A DNA stretch of 63,610 nt, taken from Pseudomonadota bacterium. Its GTDB lineage: Bacteria > Pseudomonadota > Gammaproteobacteria > Burkholderiales > JABEVD01. The position numbers and the translations under genes are program-made. The notes under the pieces were generated by a model. It ran no database searches and was not told the origin of the DNA. It saw only the letters and a program-made list of their open reading frames with translations. The DNA lies in the NCBI GenBank assembly GCA_021802655.1, contig JAJZRP010000005.1:1-63610 (forward strand), read 5' to 3'. Positions 3,851 through 63,610 of this stretch are shown here, one piece after another. Numbering within the stretch: the stretch's first letter is position 1; each line of letters starts with the position of its first letter.

Positions 3851-4672
3851 TCAGATGCCCCTCAGAAGCTCGTTGATGCTCGTCTTGGCGCGCGTCTTCG
3901 CATCGACCTGCTTGACGATCACCGCGCAGTAGAGGCTGTATTTGCCGTCCTTAGAGGGAAGGCTTCCCGATACCACCACGGCGCCTGCCGGGATGCGCCC
4001 ATAGCTGACTTCCCCGGTTTCCCTGTTGTAGATTTTGGTGCTTTGTCCGATGTAGACGCCCATCGAGATGACTGCGCCTTCGCCCACGATCACGCCTTCC
4101 ACGATCTCGGATCTGGCACCGATGAAGCAGTTGTCCTCGATGATGGTCGGGTTGGCCTGGACGGGTTCCAGCACTCCGCCTATGCCCACGCCGCCCGAAA
4201 GATGCACATTCTTTCCGATCTGCGCGCAGGAGCCTACGGTCGCCCAGGTGTCGACCATGGTGCCTTCGTCGACATAGGCGCCGATGTTCACATAGGAAGG
4301 CATCAGCACCGCGTTTTTCGCGATGTGGGAACCCTTGCGTACGGCTGCCGGCGGAACCACGCGGAAACCGCCGTCGCGGAAATCCCTGGAATTATAATCG
4401 GCGAATTTGGAAGGAACCTTGTCGTAGTAATTGGTATAGCCGCCCTTGATGAAGCTGTTGTCCTCGATCCGGAAAGAAAGCAGCACTGCCTTCTTGAGCC
4501 ATTGATGGGTCACCCAGTCGCCTCCGATCTTTTCGGCCACCCTGAGCTTGCCCGTGTCGAGCAGATGCAGGGTTTCCTGGATCGCCTCTTTCAGCTTGGG
4601 GTCGACATTGCGCGGGGTAATGTCGGCGCGGATTTCGAAAGCTTCGTCAATGAGGGGCTGAAGTTCATGCAT
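3851..4672 (-). CDS. dapD: Tetrahydrodipicolinate N-succinyltransferase
   Basis: [38 protein letters not shown]. Confidence 0.98.
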
Positions 4673-7238: not shown

Positions 7239-10200
7239 TTGCGACTTTCTCAGATCAAGCTGGCAGGCTTCAAGTCCTTCGCCGATCCGACCCATATCCA
7301 TGCGCCCGGGCAGATCGTCGGCATCGTCGGCCCCAACGGTTGCGGCAAGTCCAACATCATCGATGCACTGCGCTGGGTTCTGGGCGAATCCAGGGCTTCC
7401 GCGCTGCGCGGAAAATCCATGCAGGACGTGATTTTCAACGGCTCCGGGAACAGGAAGCCGGTTGCGCGCGCAAGCGTGGAACTGGTTTTCGACAACAGCC
7501 AGGGCAGGGTTGCCGGGCAATGGTCGAACTATGCGGAAATTGCCGTGAAGCGCGTCCTGCAGCGCGATGCGGAATCGAGCTATTTCATCAACAATCTCCG
7601 CGTCAGGCGCAAGGACGTCTCGGATATTTTCCTGGGAACTGGGGTGGGGGGGCACGCCTATGCCATCATCGAACAGGGCATGATTTCCAGAATCATCGAA
7701 GCCGATCCGGCAGACTTGAAGGTTTTTCTCGAAGAAGCGGCGGGAATTTCCAAATACCGGGAAAGAAGGCGCGAAACCGAGCTTCGCCTCTCCGCAACCC
7801 GGGGGAACCTGCAGCGAGTCGAGGATATTACCAGGGAACTGCGCGAGCGCATCGAACACCTGGAAGATCAGGCGCGCGTTGCAAAAATTTACCATGAATT
7901 GCAGGCATCCCTGAAAACGGCCCAGAACCTGCTGTGGCTGAGGCGGAAAACCAAAGCACGGGAGCTTCGCCGAAAGCTCGTCGAGGAAGCATCCAGGCTG
8001 GAGACTGCCATGGAAGCTGAAACTGCGAATCTCAGGCATCTCGAAAACCGGTTGGTCCTGGCTCGCGAGGAGCATGACTCGACGGCGCAGAGGCTTCAGG
8101 ATGCGCAGGGCGCAATGTATCAGGCCAATGCCGAAGTTTCCAGGCTGCAGCAGCAGATCGACCATCTCAAGAGCAATCGCTTGAGGGCTGAAGCGCGTAT
8201 CGAGTCGGGAAGAAAGGAACTCGATGCGCTCGAGTTGCAACATGCCGAAGCTCTGGATAACAGGCGGCAATGGCAGCAGGATGCCGCCGAGGCAAGGCGG
8301 CAAAGCGAGGCCTGTCTGCTGGAAGTGGAAAAGCTGAAGACGGCGTGCTCGGATGCCGACGAGCGGGTGAAGGAGGCGGAAAGGCTTTTCGAGGAAGCGC
8401 GACTTGCGCTCTCGGCAGGCGAGCATCAGGAGAAAATCGAGCAGGCGCATTGGGGGCATTGTGAAAACACCCTGAATCAGCTTGCCAAAAAGCGCGAAAA
8501 GCTCGCTGAAGCGAAGCGTTTTCTTCCCGTGGCTGAGGAGGAAAGGCTTGCCATGCTCGAAGGAGATCTGGCAGCCATGGAAGCCGGAATGGCGCTTGAA
8601 GCGGGCGCATCCAGCGAACTCGCGCAGCGCCTCGAGACCGCTCGGGCTGCGAGGCAGGATGCTTTTCTGCACTTGCAGGAAAACGAAAGCAATATCGCCG
8701 AAATCCGTGCCCGCCTTGCTGCACTTCGCGAAATCCAGGAGGGACTTGAAAAACGGTCCGATCTGGGCGCATGGCTTGCCGAAAACGGGCTCGATCGTCT
8801 GCCCCGTCTCTGGTCGAAGGTCGGAATTTCGGCGGGATGGGAAAACGCGCTGGAATCCGTGCTGCGCGAACGCGTCAATGCCATCCTGGCAGAGCCTTGT
8901 CAGGGTGAAAATCCACCGGGAGAAGTGGTGTTCGTCCAAAGCGGATCGTTTTCTCCCAGGTCTTCCGGAAACCCATCGCTTGTTCCCCTGCTGGGCTTGA
9001 TTACCCTGAGCGAAGAGGAAGTCGGCGGCGCCCTTTGCGAGTGGCTTTCCTCCGCCTACATCGCGCAGGATCTGGAACAGGCAATGACATTGCGTCCGAT
9101 GCTGGGGGCTTCCGAATTGCTGGTGACCCCGGAAGGGCATATCGTCACAAGACACAGCGTTCACTATTATGGCGCCGATTCCAGGGTTCACGGGGTGCTG
9201 ATTCGGCAGCAGGAAATCGAACGCCTGCTTGCGGCGGAAAACGATGCGGCTTTACTACTCGAAGCATCGAGGAAGCTTCATCAGGCTCGCGAGGAGGAAG
9301 CGGCCGGGCTGGAGTCGGCTTTAAAGGAGAAGTCGGTTTTGCTCTACCGGATGGAGAAGGAGAGGCATGAGTTGCAACTGCAGCGCGTCAGGGTCTCTGA
9401 GTCGAACGGGCGGATTCGTGAACAGTCGGCGCGCATCATTGCGGAAATGGACGAAATCGAGGGTCAGTTCAGATCGGAATCGGAGAAAAAGCTCGAGCTC
9501 GGCAAAAGAATCGAGGCGCTGCGAGAAGAAATCATCCTATTTCGCGAGCGTCTGAGCAAAGCCAGGCATGAACTGGATCAAATGAAAAGCCTGTTCGATG
9601 AAAAAAACAGGCTGATGCAGCAGGCAGTCGGAAAAAACCGTGAAGCGGAATTCCATGAAAAATCCTGCACCATGAAACTCGATGAGTTGGAGCGCAGGAT
9701 TGAATTGTTGTCGCGGAACATGGCGCAGGGAAGAGCATCACTGGATGCGCTTGGAGAGGAAATTTCGGCTCATGACCCGGCTTCTCTCGATCTTCATCTG
9801 CAGCAGGCACTCGTCACTCGGCAGGAGAAGGAAGAGGCGCTCCTTGCCGTGCGCAAGGCGAGCGAGGAATTATCTTCCTGGCTAAAAGAGCTTGACGGGC
9901 TGCGACAGGGGTCTGAACTGAAATTGGGCCCGTTGAGGGAGAAGATCGGCGATATCCGCCTCAGGGAACAGGAAGCCAGAATCAGCGAAGAGCAGTTTGA
10001 TGCGTCCTTGAAAGCTGCCGGGGCGATGGAAGAAGAACTTGTCGGTATGCTCGAAAAGGCGCCCGATAGCGAACAGCTTCAGGCCGAAATTTCGAAATTG
10101 AACGGAAGAATCGAAAGCCTTGGGGCGGTCAATCTGGCTGCTTTCGAGGAGTTGCAGACTGCGCAGGAAAGAAAGGGTTATATAGATTCTCAGGTATTGG

Positions 10201-51393: not shown

Positions 51394-52057
51394 ACGGGTA
51401 GCGCTTTCGCCTGTTTTTCAGGTATTCGGCAAGATCCTTCCTCCTGCCTGCATAAACCAGAATGGCCACCAATGCAATTATGCCGAGAATAATCACCAGA
51501 TAATATCCTATTTCTTCGAGAGAAAAGGGCTTTATCATGACAGTGTGCAGGGGAGGTGTAATATCATCAACCCGTGCTTCGGATAGTTTCTGGACGATAG
51601 CATCGATGCCTTTCAACAGTGCCTGGTTTGTCATTCCGGCCCGCAAGTCGGGCAGCACACTCGTTTTCAAAATCGACTTTGCGGTCGATTCGGGAAGCCC
51701 CTCCTTCAGTCCTTCCCCTATGGTGAGGTGCGCCACTCGCTCTCTTGCTGCAATCAGAAACAAAACATGCTTGTCCACTGCATTTTCTTCAGGGTGCCAA
51801 ACCGACTCGACCCGGGCGGCGTATTTCTCGATGGGTTCCTTGTCGAGAGCGGGTACCAACAGGATTTCGATATTGACTCCATTGAAGGTTTCCAGGCTTT
51901 CAAGTTTCGCATTCAAAGATTGGATCTGCGCCACATTCAGAAGACCTGTCAGGTCGGTGATGCGATTCCCTTCGGGGGGAACGTCAATTTCTGCAGATGC
52001 TATTCCCGTGCAAAGCAGCATGGCAATACCCAGCAATGGCCCGAATAATTTGTTCAT
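51386..52057 (-). CDS. TPM domain membrane protein
   Basis: Signal peptide, RITDLTGLL, EPIEKYA, GEGLKEGLP, C-terminal TM helix. Confidence 0.8.
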   Translation of the reverse strand: MNKLFGPLLGIAMLLCTGIASAEIDVPPEGNRITDLTGLLNVAQIQSLNAKLESLETFNGVNIEILLVPALDKEPIEKYAARVESVWHPEENAVDKHVLFLIAARERVAHLTIGEGLKEGLPESTAKSILKTSVLPDLRAGMTNQALLKGIDAIVQKLSEARVDDITPPLHTVMIKPFSLEEIGYYLVIILGIIALVAILVYAGRRKDLAEYLKNRRKRYPFK

Positions 52058-52230
52058 GTTAGACGCCCGTCTGAGGTGATTGCACTAGTTGCAATTATAA
52101 CGCTGATGGGGTGGGTGCTGTCATGAAACCATTTTCATCTTTAATCTCTCCGGGTTCAATTCCCCGCCGCTTTAGGTACCAAGTGAAGTTTCTGGAGCGG
52201 GCGGTTGGCAATCTATCTGGATGACTGGAT

Positions 52231-52256
52231 AAAAAAAGAGGCCGTAGCCCCTTTTT
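52231..52256 (-). terminator. Intrinsic terminator for the 85-aa ORF
   Basis: Minus strand GGGGC-TACG-GCCTC followed by T7, directly after the stop codon. Confidence 0.75.
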
Positions 52257-52514
52257 CTATGCTTCCACAAGATCAAGTCGCCGTTCTATTCGGGTCAGTT
52301 TCCCGTCCATTTTGTCGATTCTGCGGTTTATCATTGCTACGTCTGCATGTAACCCGGTGAGCTCGCTTCGTATGCTTACCATTTGATCTTCTATTGAGCA
52401 CATACGGTTTTTCATGGTTTCGAAGTTTTCCTCTGTTTCTTCCTTGAAGCTTCGAAGCTCGTTTCTGAGCGCTTTCAAGTGTTCGATGATGATGTTGTCG
52501 ATTTCGTTTTCCAT
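52257..52514 (-). CDS. Small coiled-coil hypothetical protein
   Basis: AGGAG RBS, heptad-rich sequence (IIEHLKALR..LTRIERRLDL), its own terminator. Confidence 0.75.
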   Translation of the reverse strand: MENEIDNIIIEHLKALRNELRSFKEETEENFETMKNRMCSIEDQMVSIRSELTGLHADVAMINRRIDKMDGKLTRIERRLDLVEA

Positions 52515-52544
52515 GCTGGTTTCTCCTATTGTGAATATCTTAGA

Positions 52545-52700
52545 CTATTTTTGATGACCCATCATCAAAATTCGTTTTTCCTTTTTCCGCCTCCGGCAGG
52601 CTCTGGCTGCTTTTCTGCGTTGTTCCTTTCGGCTGAGTGTCGAAGTTTTCGGTCTGCCTGGATTTTTCGGGATTCCCGATGGAAGCTCATTCGCAAATCT
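52545..52700 (-). pseudogene. Start-less fragment with GRPK and basic helix motif (YbfE-like or small phage DNA-binding protein remnant)
   Basis: Manual translation RFANELPSGIPKNPGRPKTSTLSRKEQRRKAARACRRRKK; preceded in frame by a TGA, no start codon. Confidence 0.45.
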
Positions 52701-52723
52701 TCAAAGCGAATGGGGCGCACCAT

Positions 52724-52945
52724 CTACTCGGTCCTCGCCCGGACCTTGACGGCATAGGCTGACATGAAGGCAAGCGACTTTTCCCTGCGCACTTTCTCGA
52801 TGACGTTCCAGTTTTTGATATACCAGTTTTCGCGACTGCTTCCGGCCCATCGTGGAACGTTGCGTTCCATCCAGTCGTAGACTTCTGGCCATGTTACGGG
52901 GATTTCGCCGAACAGATCGGCGGCGGGGTTGAATTTAGAGGGCAT
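52724..52945 (-). CDS. Hypothetical protein, possibly phage-derived
   Basis: 73-aa Trp-rich ORF (DLFGEIPVTWPEVYDW) next to the dif half-site. Confidence 0.55.
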   Translation of the reverse strand: MPSKFNPAADLFGEIPVTWPEVYDWMERNVPRWAGSSRENWYIKNWNVIEKVRREKSLAFMSAYAVKVRARTE

Positions 52946-53000
52946 GCGCCATGTTAAGGCGGCTTTTGAAATATTGGCCTATCAGTTCTGATAGCTTACG

Positions 53001-53010
53001 ATTTAACATA
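53001..53010 (-). other. Left junction: XerD half-site of the split dif
   Basis: ATTTAACATA equals the first 10 nt of the reverse-complemented dif XerD arm (ATTTAACATAA). Confidence 0.8.
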
Positions 53011-53073
53011 TATGCATACCAATCATGTATATTGTATGTAATAACAATATGATAGCTCATTTACTATGTCAAC

Positions 53074-54012
53074 TTAGTCGTTTCCGTAGTCAGGTTCATA
53101 TTTCATTTCACGTTCTTGTTCATCTTCGTAGATATAGTTTAGGTTGGCCGCAATGATTTCATCGCTTCCCATAAGAATCAGATCGCACGTTGGGCAACAG
53201 AATTCCTCACCCTCAAATTCTCGTCTGACGATCTCCCAGATGTCATACTCATCGCGCTCTTCAGTAATATCTTCGCTAGTTTGATCTCCCGTCATGAAGG
53301 CACGGCAATTACATGCGGGGCAGTTTATAGTCCAAATTTCACCATAGAGTCCCTTGAACAGACTTGCCTGTGAGTACGCTTCTCGCTGTTGTGATTCTTT
53401 TTGTAGGCGCTCTCGTTCTGCTTTTTTGATTGCCTCAAATTGTTCCTTGGCAGCGACGACGCGAAGTTTTACTGCTGCGGTGAGAGCTTTTGCAGCTTCG
53501 GTGAGCAATCGGCGAGGTGCTTTAGCATCGGCAGCACCTAGCCAGTGCTCAAGTGAAGACTCCATATAACGGAGGATTGTGTCGCCGACATGCCAGTAGC
53601 GCGTTTCCCAAGCATCTAACCGCATGGATCGAAAGGGAAGATCAGCGGAATGAAGTTCAGCATTTCGACGTTCTGCAATGTCCTGGCAGAATTTTTGGAG
53701 CGTTTTGTCAAACCTCGGGACAAGATGCGAGAGGCGCTCGAAGAGCGTCTTGGAGGTGATGGTCTTCACGTCTGTTGTTATGTTGATACCGGCTGCTACG
53801 AACATGGATTGCCAATGGTTTGGATCCACAACAAGGCTTGGATGATTACGAGCAAGCGCAGCCTTGCCTAGAAGCTCAAGGGCGAGCGAAGCCCAAAGCT
53901 GATATTCTTCGAGATCATCGCAGCTTTTCCTGGAAAGAGCGCGACCGATATAGACTTTCGACTTTGAGTAAAGTGCATCACTGTCGATAGCTATGAATAT
54001 GTCGTCACTCAT
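53074..54012 (-). CDS. HEPN-domain protein with C-terminal Zn ribbon (putative RNase effector)
   Basis: LALELLGKA helix and RNAELH (R-x4-H) HEPN motif; CPAC and CPTC pairs; acidic tail. Confidence 0.7.
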   Translation of the reverse strand: MSDDIFIAIDSDALYSKSKVYIGRALSRKSCDDLEEYQLWASLALELLGKAALARNHPSLVVDPNHWQSMFVAAGINITTDVKTITSKTLFERLSHLVPRFDKTLQKFCQDIAERRNAELHSADLPFRSMRLDAWETRYWHVGDTILRYMESSLEHWLGAADAKAPRRLLTEAAKALTAAVKLRVVAAKEQFEAIKKAERERLQKESQQREAYSQASLFKGLYGEIWTINCPACNCRAFMTGDQTSEDITEERDEYDIWEIVRREFEGEEFCCPTCDLILMGSDEIIAANLNYIYEDEQEREMKYEPDYGND

Positions 54013-54691
54013 TTATGAGAATCCTCACTAGGCGGCGCCTTGAGTTTTGTACACATGATCCACGTCCATGAAGGACACGCCAGTTATCGATGATCAGGAT
54101 ATCGCCCTGTCGCCACTCGTGAATATAAGGGTAGCTAGATGTTAACCGGTCTTCGACTAGCTGTAGAGCATCCCGTCCACGCTCGTTAACCGCTTCGAGA
54201 CAACCAGGATCATAACGGAGGAACGTACGATCTTGTGATAGGATGGTTGAGTAGAATGAACGCCGACCGGTTCGCACTAGAATAGGAGCGCTTTCGAGAA
54301 GCAGAAGCTCATGTGCCGAGAAGCTAAGACTTCGCCAGTCGATTAACCTTGAGTCTGTGCTGGGTGTTCCTGGATTGATGCATCCCAGAAGAATATAGCG
54401 GCAGGGGCGTGGCCGATGACTATGTTCGGCGTGAAAAGGTAATTCATTCAGGCCATATCGAGCGCTTAAGGATCTCGGATGGGCATAATCGGTTGTTTGG
54501 GGGCGAATTATTTCCTCAAGCGCACCAGCCCTGCCAAATGCGCGCGAACCTAAGAGGTCGCCGATTCGTCCGATCTCATCGCTGACGGCATCTGCCTCTG
54601 AATTCTGGGTACTATGACAGGCCCAACCGACCTTGGCTAGTGAGGTTAGCAATGTTGTCGAAATAGCGCTTTCGGTACAGGAGTGCTTCAT
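54005..54691 (-). CDS. TauD/TfdA-family Fe(II)/2-oxoglutarate dioxygenase
   Basis: PFHAE (H-x-E), WRQGDILIIDNWRVLHGR, distal Arg in RRLVR. Confidence 0.85.
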   Translation of the reverse strand: MKHSCTESAISTTLLTSLAKVGWACHSTQNSEADAVSDEIGRIGDLLGSRAFGRAGALEEIIRPQTTDYAHPRSLSARYGLNELPFHAEHSHRPRPCRYILLGCINPGTPSTDSRLIDWRSLSFSAHELLLLESAPILVRTGRRSFYSTILSQDRTFLRYDPGCLEAVNERGRDALQLVEDRLTSSYPYIHEWRQGDILIIDNWRVLHGRGSCVQNSRRRLVRILINE

Positions 54692-54699
54692 CGATGACC

Positions 54700-57675
54700 T
54701 TAGCGATTGAGACGGACGCGAAGCCGCCGTGCTCGTTCAAGGAATGCTGTTTCACCACCCTCAAGGATGTCGCAGACTGCCTTCCGAATTGCCTCGTTTT
54801 CCAGCCCACCCGCAACATACTTAATCAGTGGAAGTCCGCCTGATGGATGAGGGCCGGCTTCGGCTACGATAATCTGGTCTGCATCTGTGTTGATGACCAA
54901 GTTGGCATTATGCGTAACTATAATGACCTGGCGTTTCGCCTTGGCTGCAATGAAGAGCGCTACCAATTCATCGAAGACGGATTTCGGGTCCAGATTTTCT
55001 TCGGGTTGGTCGATAATTAACGGTCGATCATCAGAATCATCGAGAGCAAGATAGAGAAGCAATAGCACTATGCCCCTAGTGCCCGGTGAGAGCTTCCGGA
55101 TGTCGACGCCATCATAGGCGATTTCATAATGAACGGTGATATGATCGGTGTTGAAGAGCCAGTGTGCAAACTGCTTCGACCAAGTACGGAATTCGGCCTG
55201 CTGCGTCGGTGCATAGGGGGCGTGCGAGAGTAGATCGTTCAGGTGCTTCCCAATGAAAGCTGTCATCGCAGACCGAACTTCAGCTGAATTTCCGGTCTCC
55301 CACACGGATTTGAGTGCTTCCGTCGCAGCTGCGATTAGAGAACCACGACCATAAAATGGACCGGTTTTACGCCTGTCGAGGAGTTTTTCTTCTGCAATTG
55401 AGCCCCATACTTCTATGTCAGCACTCCTGCGAACTGAGAAGCTAAGCTTTTTGAGCGTACCAGACGATGCCGCAAGCCGTGCCATAAGTGGTGCATAGAG
55501 GCTGGCAAGTGCATCTTGTTCATTGATAATTGCCTCAAAAATTCTACCATAAGTATCGTCTCGCTCAATCTGAAGACTCTTCCGGCGAGCGGCGGCGCCT
55601 TGTGCATCGATGAGCCGGGCTTCCAGGGTTTGAAGGGCGGAATTTTCCTGTGAAATTCTGGAGGTCAGTGCAGTGTATTGATCTCGGACCAGTTTGTCGG
55701 CGCTAAACAGCGCTTCGAGACGCGTCATTTCAGCGGCAATCGGCGCAAGTGGAAAAGTTTCAAGATCGGCATGGTCTGCGATCAGTGAGGCGTTCGGATC
55801 TCCTAGTGGTGGAGGGATGCCGTTGAGCTTGGCGATCTCCTGATCCGCCCATGCGATATAAGCAGTAAGGCTTTTATCGACATCGCCTTTATATACCATC
55901 AGGAATTCATCCCATTGCTGAGCGCCCAAGCCACTGTTGCCGTGTCGCGCCTGGACTTGGCGGAGCATCTCAAGTGCACCAGTAGTACGCATGCTCCGAA
56001 CTTCATCTTGCAGGGCTACGAAAGTACGGCGCTGGTTTCCCAAGGTCTGAATCTTGCTTCGAAGTTTTTGTGCAGCCTCACTGAGTTGGGTGTAACGCGT
56101 CATTTGTGCTTCGGTTCCCTTGACGACGAGCTTAGCGCGGTCAGTGTTGTAATCGGCGATCTGCTGCTTCTTCTGAGTGACCTGTGCCGTCAGTGTGGTG
56201 ACGAGGCTCTCTTTCTCGAATTCAGTAGCGATGCGCTCGGAAATATCGGAGATCGCATCGACTTCACGCGCACGCGCCTGCTGAAAACGTGTAGTTTGCT
56301 GGGATCGCAATTCTGTGAAATCGATTACCCATTCGCGATCGTCTTGGGAGTGTGATTCAAAAATTACGCGTTCGATCTCGTTTACGAGACCGTCTGAGAT
56401 GCCCTTGGCAGAGCAAAGCTCTTCGACGAACTGTTGGGAAAGATAGCGGGCGCGCGGAAATGACATATGGCCATTGGCATCGCTGCCGTCTAGAGAGCGA
56501 TTGACAGTCGTGCCGTTGCCCCAAGTGAGTGTCGTGGTTGCATCTCCAATTAGACTTCGGGCACGCGCCAAGAAAGATGGGCTGCTGTTTTCGTCCATAT
56601 CCCATCCAGAAGGTGAAATTGCATCGCAGCCTGCAGCAATCACGTCGGCCAAAGCGGTTTTTCCTGAGCCTCGTGCCCCAATGATCGCTACAAGACCGGG
56701 GTTGAGGGGGATGTCTGGTGTGTTAGCCCAATCAGCGTTATCAATCCTAACGTGCGAGATGACCTGTGAAGGTATCGCAGATCGAGGCGGCTGTTCCCCG
56801 ACATAAGTTCGTCCCTCGGGATCGATACATGCCTGACGGAGTGTATCGAATTCCAGCGCACCTTTGACCCAGGAGAAACGATTATCATTGGGTTGGCCTA
56901 CGGATTTCTGCTCATGAGAGTCGCTGCCATGAAGACATGGTTTACAGCCGTCATATCGTTCCCTCAACTTTTCTTCGCTTATGTCACGCTGACCAAGCCA
57001 AAATTCTCGTTGAGCAGGGTTGCTTGAGAAAATGATATGGGCGAACTTCTCGATTTCTTGACGCACGGTTGCGTCTGCGGCTTGCCGAAGACCGGACGTA
57101 CCGTCGCCGGTACCGCCAGCTACGGCGATCAGGATGTTCTTTGTCGCCCATTCGCTTTCTTGAAAGACGTTACGTAGCTGGTCGAAATTGACCTTAAATT
57201 GTGTCGCACCGTGTCGAAGAGCAGCGCCATCATCGCTGATCGTTGAGTCGGCACACTTGCCGAGCTTGATCAGTTCCTCGCGCGTACAGTCGAAGCGATC
57301 CTTATAGGCATGAAATTGCAAGCGCTTGAGGATACGCTTTACCTCCGTAAGGTGCTCAGGATCCTCGGGGCTAACTAGTAGATGGATGTTCACGAAGCCC
57401 GTTTTCGCCGCTACGTCGAGGCGCAGTTCTATATTAGGGAAGATAAGTTGCACCCCCGGCAATCGTCCGGCCATCTTGTGTTTGAGAAATTCCTCGTAAG
57501 TGTCGGTGACGTAGTAGTCGGTGACGGCGATCGCCTCAATTTTTGGCGTTAGAGTTTCAAGCGTCGTTAGATATGCGCTCCATGGATCGTTAGTACCGAA
57601 CTGATCGTTGAGGATGGTTCCGGGTGCATGAATATGGGGATCCCATCGGTGCCATTCTGAACCACGACTGATCAT
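54700..57675 (-). CDS. PHP-domain + ABC/SMC-type ATPase (TrlF family, Ppl-like)
   Basis: PHP motifs WDPHIH, VTDY, NIHL, GSDSH; Walker A GARGSGKT; coiled coil; LSPGT signature, IIDQPEENLD, VTHN; GGAGGGG RBS. Confidence 0.9.
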   Translation of the reverse strand: MISRGSEWHRWDPHIHAPGTILNDQFGTNDPWSAYLTTLETLTPKIEAIAVTDYYVTDTYEEFLKHKMAGRLPGVQLIFPNIELRLDVAAKTGFVNIHLLVSPEDPEHLTEVKRILKRLQFHAYKDRFDCTREELIKLGKCADSTISDDGAALRHGATQFKVNFDQLRNVFQESEWATKNILIAVAGGTGDGTSGLRQAADATVRQEIEKFAHIIFSSNPAQREFWLGQRDISEEKLRERYDGCKPCLHGSDSHEQKSVGQPNDNRFSWVKGALEFDTLRQACIDPEGRTYVGEQPPRSAIPSQVISHVRIDNADWANTPDIPLNPGLVAIIGARGSGKTALADVIAAGCDAISPSGWDMDENSSPSFLARARSLIGDATTTLTWGNGTTVNRSLDGSDANGHMSFPRARYLSQQFVEELCSAKGISDGLVNEIERVIFESHSQDDREWVIDFTELRSQQTTRFQQARAREVDAISDISERIATEFEKESLVTTLTAQVTQKKQQIADYNTDRAKLVVKGTEAQMTRYTQLSEAAQKLRSKIQTLGNQRRTFVALQDEVRSMRTTGALEMLRQVQARHGNSGLGAQQWDEFLMVYKGDVDKSLTAYIAWADQEIAKLNGIPPPLGDPNASLIADHADLETFPLAPIAAEMTRLEALFSADKLVRDQYTALTSRISQENSALQTLEARLIDAQGAAARRKSLQIERDDTYGRIFEAIINEQDALASLYAPLMARLAASSGTLKKLSFSVRRSADIEVWGSIAEEKLLDRRKTGPFYGRGSLIAAATEALKSVWETGNSAEVRSAMTAFIGKHLNDLLSHAPYAPTQQAEFRTWSKQFAHWLFNTDHITVHYEIAYDGVDIRKLSPGTRGIVLLLLYLALDDSDDRPLIIDQPEENLDPKSVFDELVALFIAAKAKRQVIIVTHNANLVINTDADQIIVAEAGPHPSGGLPLIKYVAGGLENEAIRKAVCDILEGGETAFLERARRLRVRLNR

Positions 57676-58182
57676 GCCCCCTCCATAATCTCTTTTGATC
57701 GTACTTTACCGTCATGGGAATATTTCTTCAATCCAACTTGCTACCAATAAGCCTAGTTACTTAGAATATGCCTTCTTCCAGCATTTGAACATGTGTCTCA
57801 TACCAGAATATTAATTTCCGGTTCATAGCAATGTGTTGAGAGCTGGATGGATTGTTGGATGCGCTTAGAGATCGGGAAGAATCTATGACTTGGCTGGAGA
57901 TGATGGAACGTGGTGTCGGTGCTGCTAAATTAAATGACCTCTTGTGTCGCCGGAAAAAGCTGAAACCGCGAGCCAGCATGTTGCATGGCTATTGTTTCCA
58001 TGCTATTCTCAGATCACTATCTACGTACCAGACGGCCCGGCGTGGTGAATCCAATATTTTGGACACTGTGCTGGCATGTGCGGATCCGATAGTTAGGTTT
58101 GCGCCAGAACACTTAGTTTCAGCGTTGCACGCCTCTCTATTGCCGCAGCGGTAGGGAGTTATGCGATAGATACCGAATAATG

Positions 58183-58215
58183 GCGGAAACTAGCGAAAGC
58201 TGGTTTCCGCTTTTT
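58183..58215 (+). terminator. Strong intrinsic terminator on the + strand
   Basis: GCGGAAACTAGC-GAAA-GCTGGTTTCCGC-TTTTT (12-bp stem with one G-U pair, GNRA loop). Confidence 0.8.
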
Positions 58216-58217
58216 CA

Positions 58218-59042
58218 TTAAAAAAAATCATTGCTGAACATGTTTAGGTGAGAGCTGGATTTTACCTCATGCTGGGAATTATGGCAGTCCAAGAACGAAC
58301 CGCTTATATGCGTTGTGTCGCCACTGCCGCATGAAACATTGTAATGCCTCCAGGAGTCAATCCGCCTTCCAAACCTAAAGTTGCCGCTGATCACACAGGC
58401 AATAACATGCGGTGCTCCGGTACCTAATCTGGCATGTCGTTCCTTTCCATAGGAAAAATATTTCTTATCATCGTCGATGATGTATATCGTGGGACGATCA
58501 GATTTCCGACGCGGCTGCTTTCTATTCTTAAGTAGAGCGATCTGATCGGTCACATTGCCTGAGAATGTCGATTTACTTGCATCGTCACGACATATTCGTG
58601 CTAATGTCTGCAGATCATTCCCAACAAAGTTACGAAGTGGAAGAATAACGACCTGTTCTGTATCCGAATCCTGCATTTCCTCAATCAGAAATGAAAAGTT
58701 CCGGAGTGGTTTGGAAAGTTTCTGCCTTAGGAAGTTTTGGAGATTTTCAATCTTGTGAGGCACCTCGAGTATCACTGTAAAGAACGAGTTCCTGACTTCG
58801 GCTATCATGTTCTCCAGCGAGGAATCCACCAAAAGGATCACAGCATCCATATTTCTGGTGGCATATTCGAGATATTCTAATGCATTTCGATGATCACCTG
58901 AAGGATTAAAGATTCCGACGCTGAAGTCATCACCTTTAAACCGACCGGGAAGCTGTGATTTTGGCATGATGTTAGCCTGCCGCCGCCTATATTCTTCACA
59001 TAATTCCTGGTTAGTTGAAATTAACCCAACGAAGACCTTCAT
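58218..59042 (-). CDS. Hypothetical protein with His/Cys-rich C-terminus
   Basis: 274-aa ORF coupled to the upstream gene (TGA-C-ATG); no family recognised. Confidence 0.75.
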   Translation of the reverse strand: MKVFVGLISTNQELCEEYRRRQANIMPKSQLPGRFKGDDFSVGIFNPSGDHRNALEYLEYATRNMDAVILLVDSSLENMIAEVRNSFFTVILEVPHKIENLQNFLRQKLSKPLRNFSFLIEEMQDSDTEQVVILPLRNFVGNDLQTLARICRDDASKSTFSGNVTDQIALLKNRKQPRRKSDRPTIYIIDDDKKYFSYGKERHARLGTGAPHVIACVISGNFRFGRRIDSWRHYNVSCGSGDTTHISGSFLDCHNSQHEVKSSSHLNMFSNDFF

Positions 59043-59043
59043 G

Positions 59044-59469
59044 TCACCTGAAAAGTTTAACCAATACTGAAACGGGAATCGTAATCTTCTCTAAGTCGGA
59101 ATCTGGCAATTTTGAGAGTAACCGCATTAAGGCTACACCGTTTACAATACCCTTGGTAGCTCTTCCATCGGTGGCTATATTCTCGTCTTTTGTTGGTTCC
59201 ACAGGAAAACTATACTCTACGTTTCCGGGCACTATACCTAATTTTGCACGCTGTGTTGGATGCTCAACCAACTGATAGCCAAAATCCGTGCCGCTGTTTT
59301 TTACAAAAGACTTCAGGGACTCCGTTCCCAGAATGCTTTTATAGTCTTCATTTTCAAACTTGCGCTTCAACTGCGCAGGAAGGTCGCTTAGAAGAAGAGG
59401 TTTCTGCTCGGAGCGCCAAGTGTCATCAGCCAAGTTTTTTAATGCATTACCAAGGTCATTTTTATTCAT
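59044..59469 (-). CDS. Hypothetical protein with LOTUS/OST-HTH-like N-terminal domain
   Basis: LLLSDLPAQLKRKFENEDYKSILGTESLKSFV resembles the OST-HTH pattern; GGAG RBS. The domain call is by eye. Confidence 0.6.
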   Translation of the reverse strand: MNKNDLGNALKNLADDTWRSEQKPLLLSDLPAQLKRKFENEDYKSILGTESLKSFVKNSGTDFGYQLVEHPTQRAKLGIVPGNVEYSFPVEPTKDENIATDGRATKGIVNGVALMRLLSKLPDSDLEKITIPVSVLVKLFR

Positions 59470-59631
59470 AACATCTCCCAGAATAAGCTAATGCCAGCGT
59501 GCGGCAATTTATTATGCCAATACATTGATTCACATGCACGCTACGTTAGGAAAAAGTGATGCGAAATTCTTTTTTCGCAGATGAAATTTAACAATTATGC
59601 ATCCTAGTAATAACTTAAGGAACAGAGCGCA

Positions 59632-60057
59632 TTAATTTGAACTTGCATTAATCCAGTTCTGTCGAAAATGCTCTGCTTTTCCCCGCTCCCTTTCAAGAGC
59701 TATCTTTAGCCTTGCGTTCTCTTGGCGGACTTCCCCCAACTCCATCTTTAGCCGTCCAATCTTGTTCCGAAGCAATGCCTCAATATGACGAGCTTCCTCT
59801 GAAGTTCGAGATGGAACTGTCACCCCATCGATCTCGATAGCTGTCGATCGGTCTCCCTCACGGAAGCTGGAAATGGCATCCTTGAAGTTGTTGTAGAGGT
59901 ACTGGCGGCTTACATTTGCGAGGGTAGCGATCGCTTTGAAGGTAATTGTTTCGTTGCGCTGCTTAAGCAGCTCGATTGCATCTTCAACAGCCCGGCGCTT
60001 CTTCAGACTGCGTTGCTCCCTGGCGTGACGAACTCCATCGAGATTGTCGGTGCTCAT
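59632..60057 (-). CDS. tnpC: Tn554 TnpC-like accessory protein (DUF6262-like HTH + coiled coil)
   Basis: ITFKAIATLANVSRQYLY HTH, C-terminal coiled coil; overlaps the tnpB stop by 4 bp. Confidence 0.75.
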   Translation of the reverse strand: MSTDNLDGVRHAREQRSLKKRRAVEDAIELLKQRNETITFKAIATLANVSRQYLYNNFKDAISSFREGDRSTAIEIDGVTVPSRTSEEARHIEALLRNKIGRLKMELGEVRQENARLKIALERERGKAEHFRQNWINASSN

Positions 60058-62171
60058 TGCTCTGTCTCCAGTGATATTTTCTTGAGCTGCTGCTCGCCAC
60101 CTTGATATTGGCCATCGGACTCAATAGCCGTAACAATTGCACTGAGTCTTTTGTAAACCTCTTTGTTCTTGGCAAGTCGTCGTTTGGTGATCTCTGACAT
60201 TCTTGCCCGGCCAAGTTCTTCAAGGGCGAGGGTCTCTTCCTGTTGGACTTCAATCAGGTTGATAATTGACCCGCGCTCGGCTTTGAAGAACTCGATATCC
60301 TTGGCGTCGGCACGATAGTGCTTGCACGTGTAGCAGGCATTGGCGTGTTCGCACCAGTCACCTATCTGGGCGGGCATAGTACAGGCGCCGCCGCACACGC
60401 GCGTGGCACTAATCTGTTCCTTTCGAACCAGCAACTCTGACACACGATCATCAACCCTGCCTTCAATGGTATAGAAACGGCCGCCACCGTTTTCCAATAG
60501 CGCCTTTTTCTTCAGCTCAAGCCTGTTATTGATGTACACAGTTGCCATATCAGGGCTAGCATGACCCAGCTCCATCATGATGGATAGGACGTCGTGGCCA
60601 GCCATCGCGAGAGACGTGCCTTTTGTATGCCGGAGAGGGTGCCAGGAAAAGGCTAGGGGGGCTCCGTTATCTGTCAGTATATTATGCTTAACGCACTGGC
60701 GCTTGATTTCATTCGCAGTGTAGCTAGGAGCAATAAAGCTCTCGTGAGTACCGTTGAATACCGGAAAAAGGTACTTAGTGGCCTTTCCGTATTTCTTGAC
60801 CACATCCGTTCGCTGTGCCTCAACGATTTCAATAAGATCAGCGTGCGCAGAATCTTTCTTGTGCAGCGGCTTAATGTTCCACTTTCTAACCTTATTCTGC
60901 CAGAAAGTAAGTAGCATAAACTCATTGTCGTTCGGGTCTTGTTCAAGGCAATCAAAAAGCACGGCGTGGCCATCTTCGGCACGCATCCCTGTCCCAAGAA
61001 TAAGTGCGAAAATTCTTGGGACAGGGAGAGGGGCATCTTCTACAGCCACGCGTATGTCATCGACTACCCTTTGTGAATAGGATCTATTTGCCCCTTCCTG
61101 AACATAGCCGATTCTTCCAAGCCCTTCCTTGTAATGGGTCTTTTTAATCTTCTTTATGGCCCTATTAGATACTGAAAGAGAAGGCCACTTGTCGGGCCAT
61201 TTTCGTGATGCAGTAGACAGTACTGCAAGGCAGTCTGTGAACCAGTTCTTCCCTGCGAGCCCCTTTTTATTTCCCCAAGCGACAAACTCATCCTCTATTA
61301 ATGTGTCGGTAATAAGCGAAGGGGAGGGGCAGGAAAACTTTTCATGCATGAAATTGCGAAAGTGAATCATCCTTCCAACGTAACCCGGTAGCGTTTTGGG
61401 CGCCAATTCGTCATGTTCAATTTTGTTAATGATGTGCTCTTTGATGGCAGGCCTTAACCATTCGGGAAATAAATAAAAGTTCACATATAGGTCACGTTGT
61501 CTTTGGTCATCTCTAAATCTGACATCGCGCTCAGAATAAAGATTATTTAGAAAAATAATGTTTCTCTGGTGAAATATTTTGAACTGTTCTTTCTGGATTA
61601 GAATTTTTTTGTGAAAATCTCCCACAATGGTTATTCTCCCAGGCAAATATTCTTTTTCTGTAATTTTCCCTGACCGAACATAGTCTATTTTTATATTCGC
61701 TCGGGAAGTGTTCACCGAAAAACCAGAATATGCGGTTACGAACTGCTGGTTATGCTCTTTTCGTGTTCTGTTCGAGGCCGTGTGACCACCGATAGGAAAC
61801 TCCGGATGAGGAATATCGGCCAAGCAGGATACACTGAATATTTTAAGTATGGTTTGCCACTCAACCCTGAACCATTCCATAGGTAAGCGTCGGCGTTCCA
61901 CATTACTCATGGAATTCATACGAGGATCAGCGAGCAGGCGAGCCCAGTATAGCTTAAGCTCCAAAGACAAAGGCGGTGGAATATCTTCAAAAATTATTGG
62001 GGTGCGAGCTCCAATATAATCATTGACCATCTGCGGAATGGATCGTATGAAGTCTTTATCCCAGATATCATGAGACAATAATAGAGGCGATATATCCGAT
62101 ATAGCCTTTTTCAGTTGGCTGGCATACAAGTCTGCATCACTGTTGGTGCTGTGAGCCAACCCTAAATCCAT
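60054..62171 (-). CDS. tnpB: Tyrosine recombinase, Tn554 TnpB-like
   Basis: GTGMR, HPLRH, LGHASPDMATVY catalytic set; C-terminal Cys cluster GACTMP..CEHANACYTC; 705 aa. Confidence 0.85.
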   Translation of the reverse strand: MDLGLAHSTNSDADLYASQLKKAISDISPLLLSHDIWDKDFIRSIPQMVNDYIGARTPIIFEDIPPPLSLELKLYWARLLADPRMNSMSNVERRRLPMEWFRVEWQTILKIFSVSCLADIPHPEFPIGGHTASNRTRKEHNQQFVTAYSGFSVNTSRANIKIDYVRSGKITEKEYLPGRITIVGDFHKKILIQKEQFKIFHQRNIIFLNNLYSERDVRFRDDQRQRDLYVNFYLFPEWLRPAIKEHIINKIEHDELAPKTLPGYVGRMIHFRNFMHEKFSCPSPSLITDTLIEDEFVAWGNKKGLAGKNWFTDCLAVLSTASRKWPDKWPSLSVSNRAIKKIKKTHYKEGLGRIGYVQEGANRSYSQRVVDDIRVAVEDAPLPVPRIFALILGTGMRAEDGHAVLFDCLEQDPNDNEFMLLTFWQNKVRKWNIKPLHKKDSAHADLIEIVEAQRTDVVKKYGKATKYLFPVFNGTHESFIAPSYTANEIKRQCVKHNILTDNGAPLAFSWHPLRHTKGTSLAMAGHDVLSIMMELGHASPDMATVYINNRLELKKKALLENGGGRFYTIEGRVDDRVSELLVRKEQISATRVCGGACTMPAQIGDWCEHANACYTCKHYRADAKDIEFFKAERGSIINLIEVQQEETLALEELGRARMSEITKRRLAKNKEVYKRLSAIVTAIESDGQYQGGEQQLKKISLETEQ

Positions 62172-63367
62172 TTTATTTCCCTTTCAGAAAGGTGTACGCC
62201 ACTGTCTCTGAACTCCCTGAGCCGCTTTTCAAGATTATCCGGGCCAGTAAGGTGCAGCTTACGTATTTCTGAGCTGAACAGGTGTTTATAGAAATCAAGT
62301 GTTGTTTGTGGGCTTGCATGACCTAGACGATCGGCCACAGCCAAGAGCCCATGTCCATCTGCAATCGCTTCGCTGGCATGCGTGTGCCGGAAGTTGTGCC
62401 AGGTGAATACGCACCCAGTTCGTTTAATGAGGTAGGTTTTAAGGTTTTCGGCATAGCTTTTCGATAAAGCGCGGCCGACGCGGCCACGTTGTACGTTACA
62501 GAAGACGTACTCTGTGCCAGATTCAAAAGCCGCCACGTACTCCTCGCTGGTCAGGTAGTCTTCGTACATTTCCAGCAGATAAGGCATTACTGGTATTGCT
62601 CGGGCGCGACCAGATTTGGCGCGGGCACCGTTTTCGTTGTCAGCGCGGGGTATGACCCAAATAATTTTTTCAGCCAAATCGATATCGGTATGGCGGAGGC
62701 CCAATGCCTCTCCTATCCTCATGCCAGTGTTGTACAGAAGGGTCAGGAGAAAGGCATCCCGAATCAGGTGGCAGGCCAGAATTAGATCCAAGACAATCTC
62801 CGGAGACATTCTCTTCAGAGTAACCCTTTTCTGGATCAGCCCCAAATCACCTCTCAGATATGGGTCTTTTTGGCGGGTATTCCTTCGCTGGTTGATATGC
62901 TCTAGGAATGGCTTATAGCTGTGCGTTCCCTGATAGCGGTTTGATTCGGTAACATTCGCAAAGGTCGGTGTTCTACCAGTTAGGTATCGGTAGAAGGACT
63001 TCACAGACAAATGGATCTGATTTCTCAGGGTTGGACTCAGCGGGGATATAGGGGCCACGGAAGAAGTCAGGTAGGCTAAGTTAGTGCCTGAGGGGGCGTT
63101 TCCCTCAAGGTGGTACGGGAGCCATTGTAGGAAACGGTCATAGTCCGTCACAGAAATGTCGGACAGGTCTTTCCTGCACGCCAGCAAATATGATCCTAGT
63201 CGGGCGACATGCCTAGCGTAGGCTTGGACGGTGTTCGGTGATTGATTAATCTGCTCAAGATGCACAATCCAGTCACGAATGCAGTCGATTGGTGTGCCGT
63301 CATCATCGACAACAGTCCATGAATAGCGCGAATCATCAAAACGGATCTTTACAAGTTCAAGTGCCAA
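62162..63367 (-). CDS. tnpA: Tyrosine recombinase, Tn554 TnpA-like
   Basis: SPNTVQAYA, TGMRIGE, AKSG, HNFRH, LGHASPQTTLDFY; likely TTG start at 63367 after GGAAG (ORF track starts at 63433). Confidence 0.9.
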   Translation of the reverse strand: MALELVKIRFDDSRYSWTVVDDDGTPIDCIRDWIVHLEQINQSPNTVQAYARHVARLGSYLLACRKDLSDISVTDYDRFLQWLPYHLEGNAPSGTNLAYLTSSVAPISPLSPTLRNQIHLSVKSFYRYLTGRTPTFANVTESNRYQGTHSYKPFLEHINQRRNTRQKDPYLRGDLGLIQKRVTLKRMSPEIVLDLILACHLIRDAFLLTLLYNTGMRIGEALGLRHTDIDLAEKIIWVIPRADNENGARAKSGRARAIPVMPYLLEMYEDYLTSEEYVAAFESGTEYVFCNVQRGRVGRALSKSYAENLKTYLIKRTGCVFTWHNFRHTHASEAIADGHGLLAVADRLGHASPQTTLDFYKHLFSSEIRKLHLTGPDNLEKRLREFRDSGVHLSEREIKWI

Positions 63368-63481
63368 ATCAAGCTTCCATGCACAGTATGGACAAGGTGT
63401 GCATATTCTGGCGGCATTAGCTTCAGGCCACAATTACAAATTCATTCTTTACATAGTGGACATAGACGCCATTGGTGTTCG

Positions 63482-63509
63482 TATTAACATAATATACATT
63501 ATGCGAAAT
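63482..63509 (-). other. dif: dif site (XerCD chromosome dimer resolution), reconstituted at the right junction
   Basis: Minus strand ATTTCGCATAA-TGTATA-TTATGTTAATA. The central 22 bp are identical to E. coli dif; the two outermost XerD-arm bases are altered. Confidence 0.92.
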
Positions 63510-63543
63510 AAGTATGTAAAAAGCGGGCAGTTGAACCGTAAGC

Positions 63544-63596
63544 TTGACAATGCCCTTCCGGCAGGCTATCAATGATAATCGGTCTTTTTTAGGAGG
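63544..63596 (+). promoter_or_regulatory. Sigma70-like promoter and RBS for the next gene (ATG 63602, runs off the window)
   Basis: TTGACA (63544-63549), 17-bp spacer, TATCAA (63567-63572); AGGAGG (63591-63596). Confidence 0.55.
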
Positions 63597-63610
63597 ATGA
63601 CATGAGACAC

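Follow-up and report, generated by a model that had tools for sequence, protein, structure and literature searches.

Few non-coding sites in bacteria are as conserved as dif, at which joined chromosomes are unlinked. Its use as a landing pad is documented mainly for elements that rely on the host recombinases XerC and XerD (XerCD). How does an element that brings recombinases of its own come to lie there? We address this question with contig JAJZRP010000005.1 of a Pseudomonadota bacterium (the window: the whole stretch of 63,610 bp that was analysed, which is the entire contig C73 in an assembly of 86 contigs and 2.01 Mb with 88% completeness). Toward its right end lies an element with the genes tnpA, tnpB and tnpC, which an earlier note on this DNA, made from the letters alone, had read as a Tn554-like element targeting the XerD arm of dif. 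We find that it is a real and recently mobile member of the Tn554 superfamily, inserted in the XerD arm of the chromosomal dif and belonging to a proteobacterial clade with that target specificity.

Boundaries and target site of the element

When the sequence was reread, both junctions were exactly as the earlier note had written them and its coordinates, 53001-63509, were correct (Table 1). The left junction (52999-53020) reads cgATTTAACATA up to the boundary and TATGCATACC after it, so that the element side begins with TATGCATACCAA, and the right junction (63472-63509) reads TTGGTGTTCGTA followed by TTAACATAATATACATTATGCGAAAT. The window has exactly two copies of the 8-bp sequence TTAACATA, at 53003-53010 and 63484-63491; the expected count is 0.30, and at least two copies appeared in 2 of 100 shuffles of the window. 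All open reading frames (ORFs) of at least 140 aa between 53,011 and 63,483 lie on the minus strand, and the GC content is 43-53% over the element as against 55-60% further left.

According to the earlier note, deleting the element together with one copy of the repeat gives a consensus-type dif. The restored sequence, ATTTAACATAATATACATTATGCGAAAT, matches the dif of the congener G005 exactly; the 1-3 differences from the sites of G001, G003, G004, G006, G007 and G008 are confined to the outer XerC arm. The XerD arm ATTTAACATAA is identical in six of these seven congeners, the last letter being A instead of T in G006. Each of the seven (G001, G003-G008) carries an intact site of the type ATTTAACATAATATACATTATGCGAA[AG]T within 20-1,000 bp of the left-flank genes that they have in common with the window, which encode RatA/RnfH-type proteins and a TPM-domain protein. 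In G005 the left flank, dif and the right flank are contiguous with nothing in between, and comparison with this element-free relative recovers the restored sequence letter for letter.

The site has the features of a chromosomal dif. The right-hand 28-mer is the sole dif-like site in the 2.01-Mb assembly when up to six substitutions are allowed, and the host xerD (389 bits) and xerC (356 bits) both score above curated cut-offs. A third, partial Xer-like frame is found beside xerC/xerD (G000:C72:2318-2530; 84-88 bits, model positions ~206-277, within an open frame of 181 aa). GC skew is positive over the whole contig. The FtsK-orienting polar sequence (KOPS) motif of E. coli is GGGNAGGG, and the contig holds it 13 times on the plus strand and twice on the minus strand, oriented toward the site. 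The use of the E. coli motif here is supported because its polarity flips at the corresponding Alcanivorax site. The occupied site in the complete chromosome of Alcanivorax sp. IL2, at 2,398,383, is the only match to ATAAN6TTATGTWAA; between the samples taken at 2.34 and 2.44 Mb, GC skew drops from +0.057 to -0.031 and the strand counts of GGGNAGGG go from 8:0 to 0:10.

To check the empty allele, we aligned to positions 51500-63610 the Logan contigs from public runs of one study, which are labelled mine-drainage metagenome. Contigs join 53002 directly to 63484, skipping 10,481 bases, with 8 letters that fit either side. Run X1 perhaps represents the source sample; there the depth is 35.5 for the empty joint, about 27 for the element and 85-145 for the flanks. 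Run X4 has a 726-nt contig with the empty joint at a depth of 80, and the depth of the element is about 0-2. Occupied and empty alleles thus coexist in nature. An empty allele that failed to join at TTAACATA would have spoken against the earlier reading; the contigs of X1 and X4 do join there.

Table 1. Coordinates of the element, its ends and its genes in the window
Feature	Position	Strand	Description
Whole element	53003/53011 to 63483/63491		10,481 bp; flanked by two TTAACATA copies
Orphan XerD-arm half-site ATTTAACATA	53001..53010	+	tnpA-distal (far) junction; includes the far 8-bp core copy, 53003-53010
Far-end core-type arm TATGCATACCAA (reverse complement TTGGTATGCATA)	53011..53022	+	Imperfect inverted repeat of the near-end arm, 9/12
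Subterminal motif CTATGTCAAC	53064..53073	+	Inverted copy of the 63456-63465 motif; candidate accessory binding site
Cargo ORF, 312 aa	53074..54012	-	No family; weak DUF3644-like PADLOC match, E 0.003; Cys-rich C-terminus
Cargo ORF, 228 aa	54005..54691	-	C-terminal part TauD/TfdA-type Fe(II)/2-oxoglutarate dioxygenase (PF02668, E 4e-16)
Cargo ORF, 991 aa	54700..57675	-	TrlF-family AAA-like ATPase (NF045780, 714 bits, cut-off 350)
Cargo ORF, 274 aa	58218..59042	-	No family
Cargo ORF, 141 aa	59044..59469	-	No family
tnpC	59632..60057	-	141 aa; DUF6262/helix-turn-helix; 4-nt overlap with tnpB
tnpB	60054..62171	-	705 aa; long tyrosine recombinase; R397, H511, R514, H537, Y546; C-terminal Cys cluster 593-616
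tnpA	62162..63367	-	401 aa; Xer-like simple tyrosine recombinase; R217, H324, R327, H350, Y360
Subterminal motif GTGGACATAG (reverse complement CTATGTCCAC)	63456..63465	+	18 nt inside the near end
Near-end core-type arm TTGGTGTTCGTA	63472..63483	+	Final TA takes the place of the outer AT of the XerD arm
Regenerated dif	63482..63509	+	XerD arm TATTAACATAA, centre TATACA, XerC arm TTATGCGAAAT; near 8-bp core copy, 63484-63491

Homology to Tn554

At one end of the element, the three recombination genes share a strand and follow each other as tnpA-tnpB-tnpC, with the start of tnpA 116 nt from that end. Neighbouring genes overlap, tnpA and tnpB by 10 nt with no gene between them. A longer tnpA ORF of 423 aa, from a TTG at 63433, is probably too long, since the homologues measure about 400 aa. 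As a reference for Tn554 we used the copy on the S. aureus plasmid pWBG4, which carries tnpA (361 aa), tnpB (630 aa), a DUF6262 protein (125 aa), ant(9)-Ia and erm(A).

The claim that these proteins are TnpABC homologues of Tn554 holds for all three, in the same gene order. By BLASTP, TnpA is 33% identical to Tn554 TnpA over 353 aa (E 3e-51), TnpB is 26% identical to its counterpart over residues 363-683, which comprise the catalytic half and the C-terminal Cys cluster (E 1e-21), and TnpC is 32% identical (E 2e-9). With 705 aa, TnpB falls within the 600-830 aa of the long tyrosine recombinases of the superfamily, which have their catalytic domain in the C-terminal half. TnpA also matches PF00589 (E 1.6e-26) and scores 80-96 bits with the XerA/C/D models, under their cut-offs. 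The catalytic R-H-R-H-Y residues are intact in both recombinases, and those of TnpA are invariant across 27 homologues.

Insertion sites of related elements

We then asked where related elements are inserted. A TnpA search gave 356 homologues, and an alignment of 27 was used to scan one genome per species, yielding 599 pattern matches, 406 of which were confirmed by tblastn. Junctions were read among the best 80 of these 406. Thirty of the 80 loci are from Pseudomonadota and 29 of them were read (L051 comes without upstream DNA); in 8 of the 29 the contig begins at or inside the element end, leaving 21 with a readable tnpA-side junction.

In 14 of these 21 the junction consists of a XerC-arm-like sequence, 6 nt and TTATGT[TA]AA/TA, where the slash marks the element boundary (Alcanivorax, 2; Halomonas and allies, 3; an uncultured gammaproteobacterium, 1; sphingomonads, 8). 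Two more, in an Acetobacteraceae genome and on a Microvirga plasmid, have a variant dif-like form of GAA, 6 nt and TTATGGAAT/TA; one (L027) has the centre and XerD arm with no XerC arm; and four (L032, L047, L048 and L050) have other sequences. The tnpA gene is always on the dif-centre side, in the 16 dif-type junctions as in the window. Far junctions, in which the conserved end is followed by ATGT[TA]AA and AT, were found in the window and 10 loci and also on the plasmids pNL1 (AT) and pNL2 (TT) and a Halioglobus plasmid, so that the geometry of element end, ATGTTAA and AT recurs in 13 other elements. The proposed check, a dif next to tnpA and a XerD half-site at the far end, therefore came out positive for the tnpA-side junctions at dif, with the half-site present where a far end was found.

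The sphingomonad elements measure about 4.07-4.08 kb and the others about 4.7, 6.0, 8.6, 10.5, 12.4 and 15.5 kb. Both the pNL1 and the pNL2 element lie in plasmid dif-like sites (2/2), and the two copies match at 4091 of 4092 positions. In one Novosphingobium metagenome-assembled genome, the copies on contigs of 126 kb and 4.14 Mb are identical (4090/4090). TnpB was not found in 40 genomes of relatives of the host (8 of the same genus and 32 of the same order).

In a tree of TnpA (46 rows; L041, which has internal stops, and near-duplicates are omitted), the proteobacterial clade has a Shimodaira-Hasegawa approximate likelihood-ratio support of 100 and the dif subclade one of 93. The actinobacterial and cyanobacterial relatives are not at dif-like sites, and specificity tracks the recombinase clade. 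Homologues at unrelated sites would have told against a dif-targeting element; of the proteobacterial relatives with a readable junction, 14 of 21 sit at dif. The proposed scope, Proteobacteria, thus stands for this clade and does not extend to the actinobacterial and cyanobacterial relatives, which use other sites.

Position of the strand exchange

To locate the exchange point, we aligned the near (tnpA-side) and far junctions and reconstructed attB and attP for ten elements. The attP consists of TTGGT[AG]TGCATA or CTGGTGYTGATA, then [T/C]ATGTTAA, then TA[CG]NNNCACCA, and thus of an 8-nt spacer between two 12-bp arms that are imperfect inverted repeats; the arms of the window element match at 9 of 12 positions. 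Core sites of tyrosine recombinases are usually laid out as inverted arms around a short spacer. Throughout the family, near and far ends are conserved and form these inverted arms around the core, the far-end arm being kept among the relatives as TTGGTGTGCATA or CTGGTGYTGATA. Further inside, an inverted subterminal motif, CTATGTC[CA]AC, is conserved as well and occurs near both ends of the window element (Table 1); at the matching position the relatives have GTTGACA/TGGACAG in far ends and TGTC[CA]A in near ends. The attB is without element-type arms beside the core.

The junctions of the window share 8 bp and those of genomes G042-G045 only 7 bp (ATGTTAA). In the latter, the far junction reads ATACATGTTAA/AT and the near junction TATTATGTTAA/TA, with the centre-adjacent base being C at the far and T at the near junction. 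Arm position 10 thus differs between the two junctions in these Halomonas-type relatives. The shared letters are XerD-arm positions in both cases, which agrees with the earlier claim that puts the crossover in the XerD arm instead of the central region. The alignments place strand exchange within XerD-arm positions 3-9/10 and so outside the region in which XerCD would cross over.

The two borders of the 6-bp dif centre are the cleavage points of XerC and XerD. An exchange at either of them would carry a complete chromosomal XerD arm to the far junction. Such an arm is not seen, and the crossover is therefore not there. A crossover inside the XerD arm in turn argues for catalysis by TnpA and TnpB, as far as sequence comparison can indicate.

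Proposed mechanism and alternatives

We propose that the element is a Tn554-superfamily integrative element that targets the XerD arm of dif and moves as a circle by means of its own TnpA and TnpB, a reading to which we give a probability of roughly 0.7. The element, consisting of tnpA-tnpB-tnpC and five cargo genes, would circularize to give an attachment site with the arms TTGGTATGCATA and TACGAACACCAA around the 8-nt spacer TATGTTAA. TnpA and TnpB would exchange strands between this spacer and the same letters in the XerD arm (positions 3-10) of the recipient dif. Insertion would be orientation-specific and would rebuild a complete dif beside tnpA with the outermost XerD-arm bases changed from AT to TA, while at the far end an orphan XerD half-site would remain. 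The host XerC and XerD should still be able to resolve chromosome dimers, and the site would stay open to further insertions. Because plasmids also carry dif-like sites, the element could shuttle between chromosome and plasmids.

Several observations weigh against this proposal. On the plus strand the attP of the window (TATTAACATA-TATGCA) resembles a XerD arm and centre minus one base, and XerD might bind to it. The circle junction was not seen in the Logan contigs aligned to 51500-63610, which drop rare forms. With DUF6262, TnpC scores 28.7 bits, just under the 29-bit cut-off. None of the three Alcanivorax loci has a recognisable far end within 11 kb (the core, or the arm motif with up to 3 mismatches), and in the whole IL2 genome the sole match to ATATATGTTAAAT (up to 1 mismatch) is about 500 kb from the element, suggesting that some copies are decayed or larger. 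Full function of a regenerated dif that has TA for AT at the outer XerD arm is putative, and so is the effect of this change on the binding of XerD. The insertion on the Halioglobus plasmid (L032/L106), finally, is at a site whose XerC arm matches at 10 of 11 positions with correct spacing and whose XerD arm is poor (5/11), which hints that the XerC side, possibly with host XerC bound, may aid targeting.

This Halioglobus copy (L106 10680-10730 and 15341-15365; L032 has the same context) is inserted at GATGCGCATAA-CCCACC-TTGGCGAGA, directly after the gene of a plasmid tyrosine recombinase of 257 aa. Its two junction cores differ, with TGGCGAGA on the tnpA side and CATGTTAA followed by AT on the far side. 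According to the part of PMC10214605 available to us, Tn554 and SEs (integrative elements that circularize with a strand bias) carry a footprint, so that the cores differ at the two ends; the unlike cores on the Halioglobus plasmid follow this pattern of the Tn554 'footprint'.

The Halioglobus site also bears on a mixed mechanism, in which TnpA and TnpB cut and join and the target is read through host XerC and/or XerD already sitting on dif. Insertion is in every case into a full Xer site of 11-6-11 geometry, and even this secondary site keeps 10 of 11 positions of the XerC arm and the 6-nt spacing with a poor XerD arm. Moreover, the core alone seems too little information for an attB without element-type arms, and TnpA is itself Xer-like in its below-cut-off scores with the XerA/C/D models. 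However, the insertion in L027 is kept without an upstream XerC arm, though perhaps by later rearrangement, and actinobacterial relatives with an equal protein set sit at unrelated sites, so that the family has no general need for Xer proteins. We therefore consider a Xer-read target unlikely. A mechanism in which host XerCD alone integrates and excises the element through a dif-like attP, with tnpABC as passengers or in some other role, would make it one of the integrative mobile elements exploiting Xer recombination (IMEXs). The location at dif, the dif regenerated on one side and the likeness of attP to a XerD arm and centre all fit an IMEX, and attPs consisting of a XerD arm only are reported for dif-type double-jelly-roll (DJR) phages in the portion of PMC12715192 that we could consult. 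Nevertheless, the exchange point is inside the XerD arm, and arm base 11 (also base 10 in the Halomonas-type relatives) stays with the centre at the near junction, whereas the far junction takes it from the element. The element has two intact recombinases whose clade predicts the target, whereas IMEXs, as defined in that same portion of PMC12715192, lack an integrase. Integration by XerCD is thus highly improbable.

The locus could also be a fixed, immobile island, with empty alleles representing strains that the element never entered or deletions by slippage between the 8-bp repeats. No circle is seen in the Logan contigs, the absence of TnpB from all 40 genomes of relatives means one copy in the lineage, and the Alcanivorax copies look decayed. 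Against this, the three genes are intact with their catalytic residues and both ends fit the family consensus. Run X1 holds both alleles side by side (element about 27, joint 35.5, flanks 85-145) and X4 is nearly element-free, while identical copies on two replicons in two other organisms point to recent movement in the family. An immobile island is the least credible of these explanations, and we retain a mobile element that moves by its own TnpA and TnpB.

Relation to known systems

Tn554 and also Tn553, Tn558, Tn559 and Tn6674 have the same gene set and order: tnpA, tnpB with a C-terminal Cys cluster, and tnpC (DUF6262). All three proteins are reportedly needed for transposition of Tn554, a result said to go back to work by Bastos and Murphy in 1988. 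The present element resembles Tn554 also in its site- and orientation-specific insertion via a short core with no true target duplication, the core being 6 bp in Tn554 and 7-8 bp here. Unlike Tn554, the dif-targeting elements have clear 12-bp inverted arms, gamma- and alphaproteobacterial hosts and cargo other than antibiotic resistance. Their target is the XerD arm of dif or plasmid dif-like sites, as against att554 for Tn554 proper, although att554 is not a criterion of the superfamily. The att554 site lies in radC, and the Tn554 copy of pWBG4 adjoins a gene for a JAB-domain (RadC-like) protein. The far end of that copy (L105 8470-8495) reads CTTGATAA/GATGTA and resembles the ...TGATAT/ATGTTAA ends of the dif-targeting clade, a likeness that is suggestive only and may reflect an ancestral ATGT core or chance.

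Earlier descriptions touch on this family. In the accessible part of PMC8138268, Tn554 TnpA is grouped with the simple, Xer-like recombinases, and a dif target is not mentioned. Tn554-like tnpABC sets in Actinobacteria and on the plasmids pNL1 and pNL2 were described by Van Houdt et al. 2012 (PMC3414803), who noted identical copies; in the text of that paper as available, no attB is given and 'dif' occurs 0 times. The pNL1 and pNL2 sets of Novosphingobium aromaticivorans belong to the same clade as the window element and are minimal elements of 4,082 bp with the same ends. The TnpA of pNL1 groups with sphingomonad elements inserted at dif and is 56% identical to that of the window. Relative to what the available text of PMC3414803 reports, both copies are now placed in plasmid dif-like sites. 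A full-text literature search, with subscription journals mostly outside its coverage, returned no paper linking the Tn554 family to dif.

The IMEXs (CTXphi, VGJphi, TLCphi, the gonococcal genetic island and the dif-type DJR phages) likewise integrate at dif, regenerate one working dif with the other junction defective, and can stack. They have no recombinase of their own and cross over through XerC/XerD in or at the 6-bp centre, whereas the element described here has two recombinases and a crossover placed in the XerD arm. In SEs and GInts, as described, the core comprises four genes, one of them a catalytically dead Tfp/GinC between the recombinases; the present element has three genes and matches Tn554 directly. 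The targets given for SEs and GInts in the portions of those descriptions available to us are, unlike the present one, not dif.

Recombinases of its own, an exchange in the XerD arm and a restored dif would amount to a different solution to integration at dif, at a target that is universal, safe and shared with plasmids. We lean toward a broader proposal in which a proteobacterial Tn554-type clade has as universal attachment site the XerD arm, in dif as well as in plasmid multimer-resolution sites, and brings two recombinases of its own, with XerCD-independent catalysis and a usable dif always rebuilt. These elements would form a second, mechanistically distinct dif-integrating class beside the IMEXs, one that could hop among termini and plasmids across classes and stack defence genes at the terminus, and they might read the site via bound Xer proteins. 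Targeting of dif would explain the presence of a non-conjugative element of 4-15 kb in Alcanivorax, Halomonas, sphingomonads and their plasmids. These elements also extend the range of hosts and targets known for the Tn554 family. The mechanism and its interplay with XerCD and FtsK could be studied in the cultured carriers N. aromaticivorans DSM 12444, Alcanivorax sp. IL2 and Halomonas nitroreducens. The conserved ends also provide a simple annotation rule for islands and candidate defence cargo beside dif.

Cargo genes

The cargo of the window element looks defence-like. The C-terminal part of the 991-aa TrlF-family ATPase resembles the anti-phage protein Ppl, with 124 bits (the cut-off of 1000 is not reached) and a PADLOC Ppl match of E 1e-30. 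According to the accessible part of its description, TrlF is named for a Photorhabdus temperature-restriction locus (bioRxiv 10.1101/2020.06.02.129163). Two further cargo-bearing elements were examined among the relatives: L030 carries a HamB-like helicase (PADLOC E 1.6e-39) and L031 a DUF4209 protein that matches the candidate system PDC-S39 (E 1e-25); the Halioglobus plasmid element has a ParE-type toxin gene and the sphingomonad elements are cargo-free. These resemblances at the level of families make 'defence cargo' a reasonable label for a putative function.

Variation around dif and at other insertion sites

The region around dif varies within the genus. In G005 (L013 3515-3542) and G006 (L021 813-840) dif is inverted relative to the conserved flanks, so that the XerC arm adjoins the left flank; the XerD arm adjoins it in the window (63482-63509), G001, G003, G004, G007 and G008. 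This difference in orientation is a small inversion within one genus. Between the conserved left flank and CGAT plus the XerD arm, the window has an 855-bp segment (52142-52996) with two small ORFs, one of 73 aa and one encoding an 85-aa coiled coil. The segment is without counterpart in G005, and in G006 it is inverted on the opposite side of dif, again abutting the XerD arm. It is also missing from a divergent strain whose contigs join 52141-CGAT-63484. Many differing loose contig ends are found at 52140 and 52172, which suggests that the surrounding region is a strain-variable hot spot.

Two proteobacterial loci have unusual surroundings. In L027 (Alcanivoracaceae; 9850-9890) the junction reads TGTATA-TTATGTTAA/TA with no XerC arm upstream (CCGCCAAAGCTC), unlike in two close relatives, and its XerC side was possibly altered by a later event. 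In L112 (G045:C1) the far end followed by ATGTTAAAT occurs twice, at 1501-1513 and 2242-2254, 741 bp apart. The 741-bp stretch holds a gene like those of dCMP/cytidine deaminases, and its left edge is without the expected TA and near end. The pair looks like the remnant of an older insertion. It is at a greater distance from dif than the intact element, which is the arrangement that stacking at a regenerated dif predicts.

Outside the Pseudomonadota, the actinobacterial elements (L058-L104) all begin, about 150-200 nt upstream of tnpA, with GTTATCT[GCT][GC]AG, and several of these insertions appear to interrupt coding sequences shared by unrelated contigs. The cyanobacterial relatives have (CAA)n runs near the element end.

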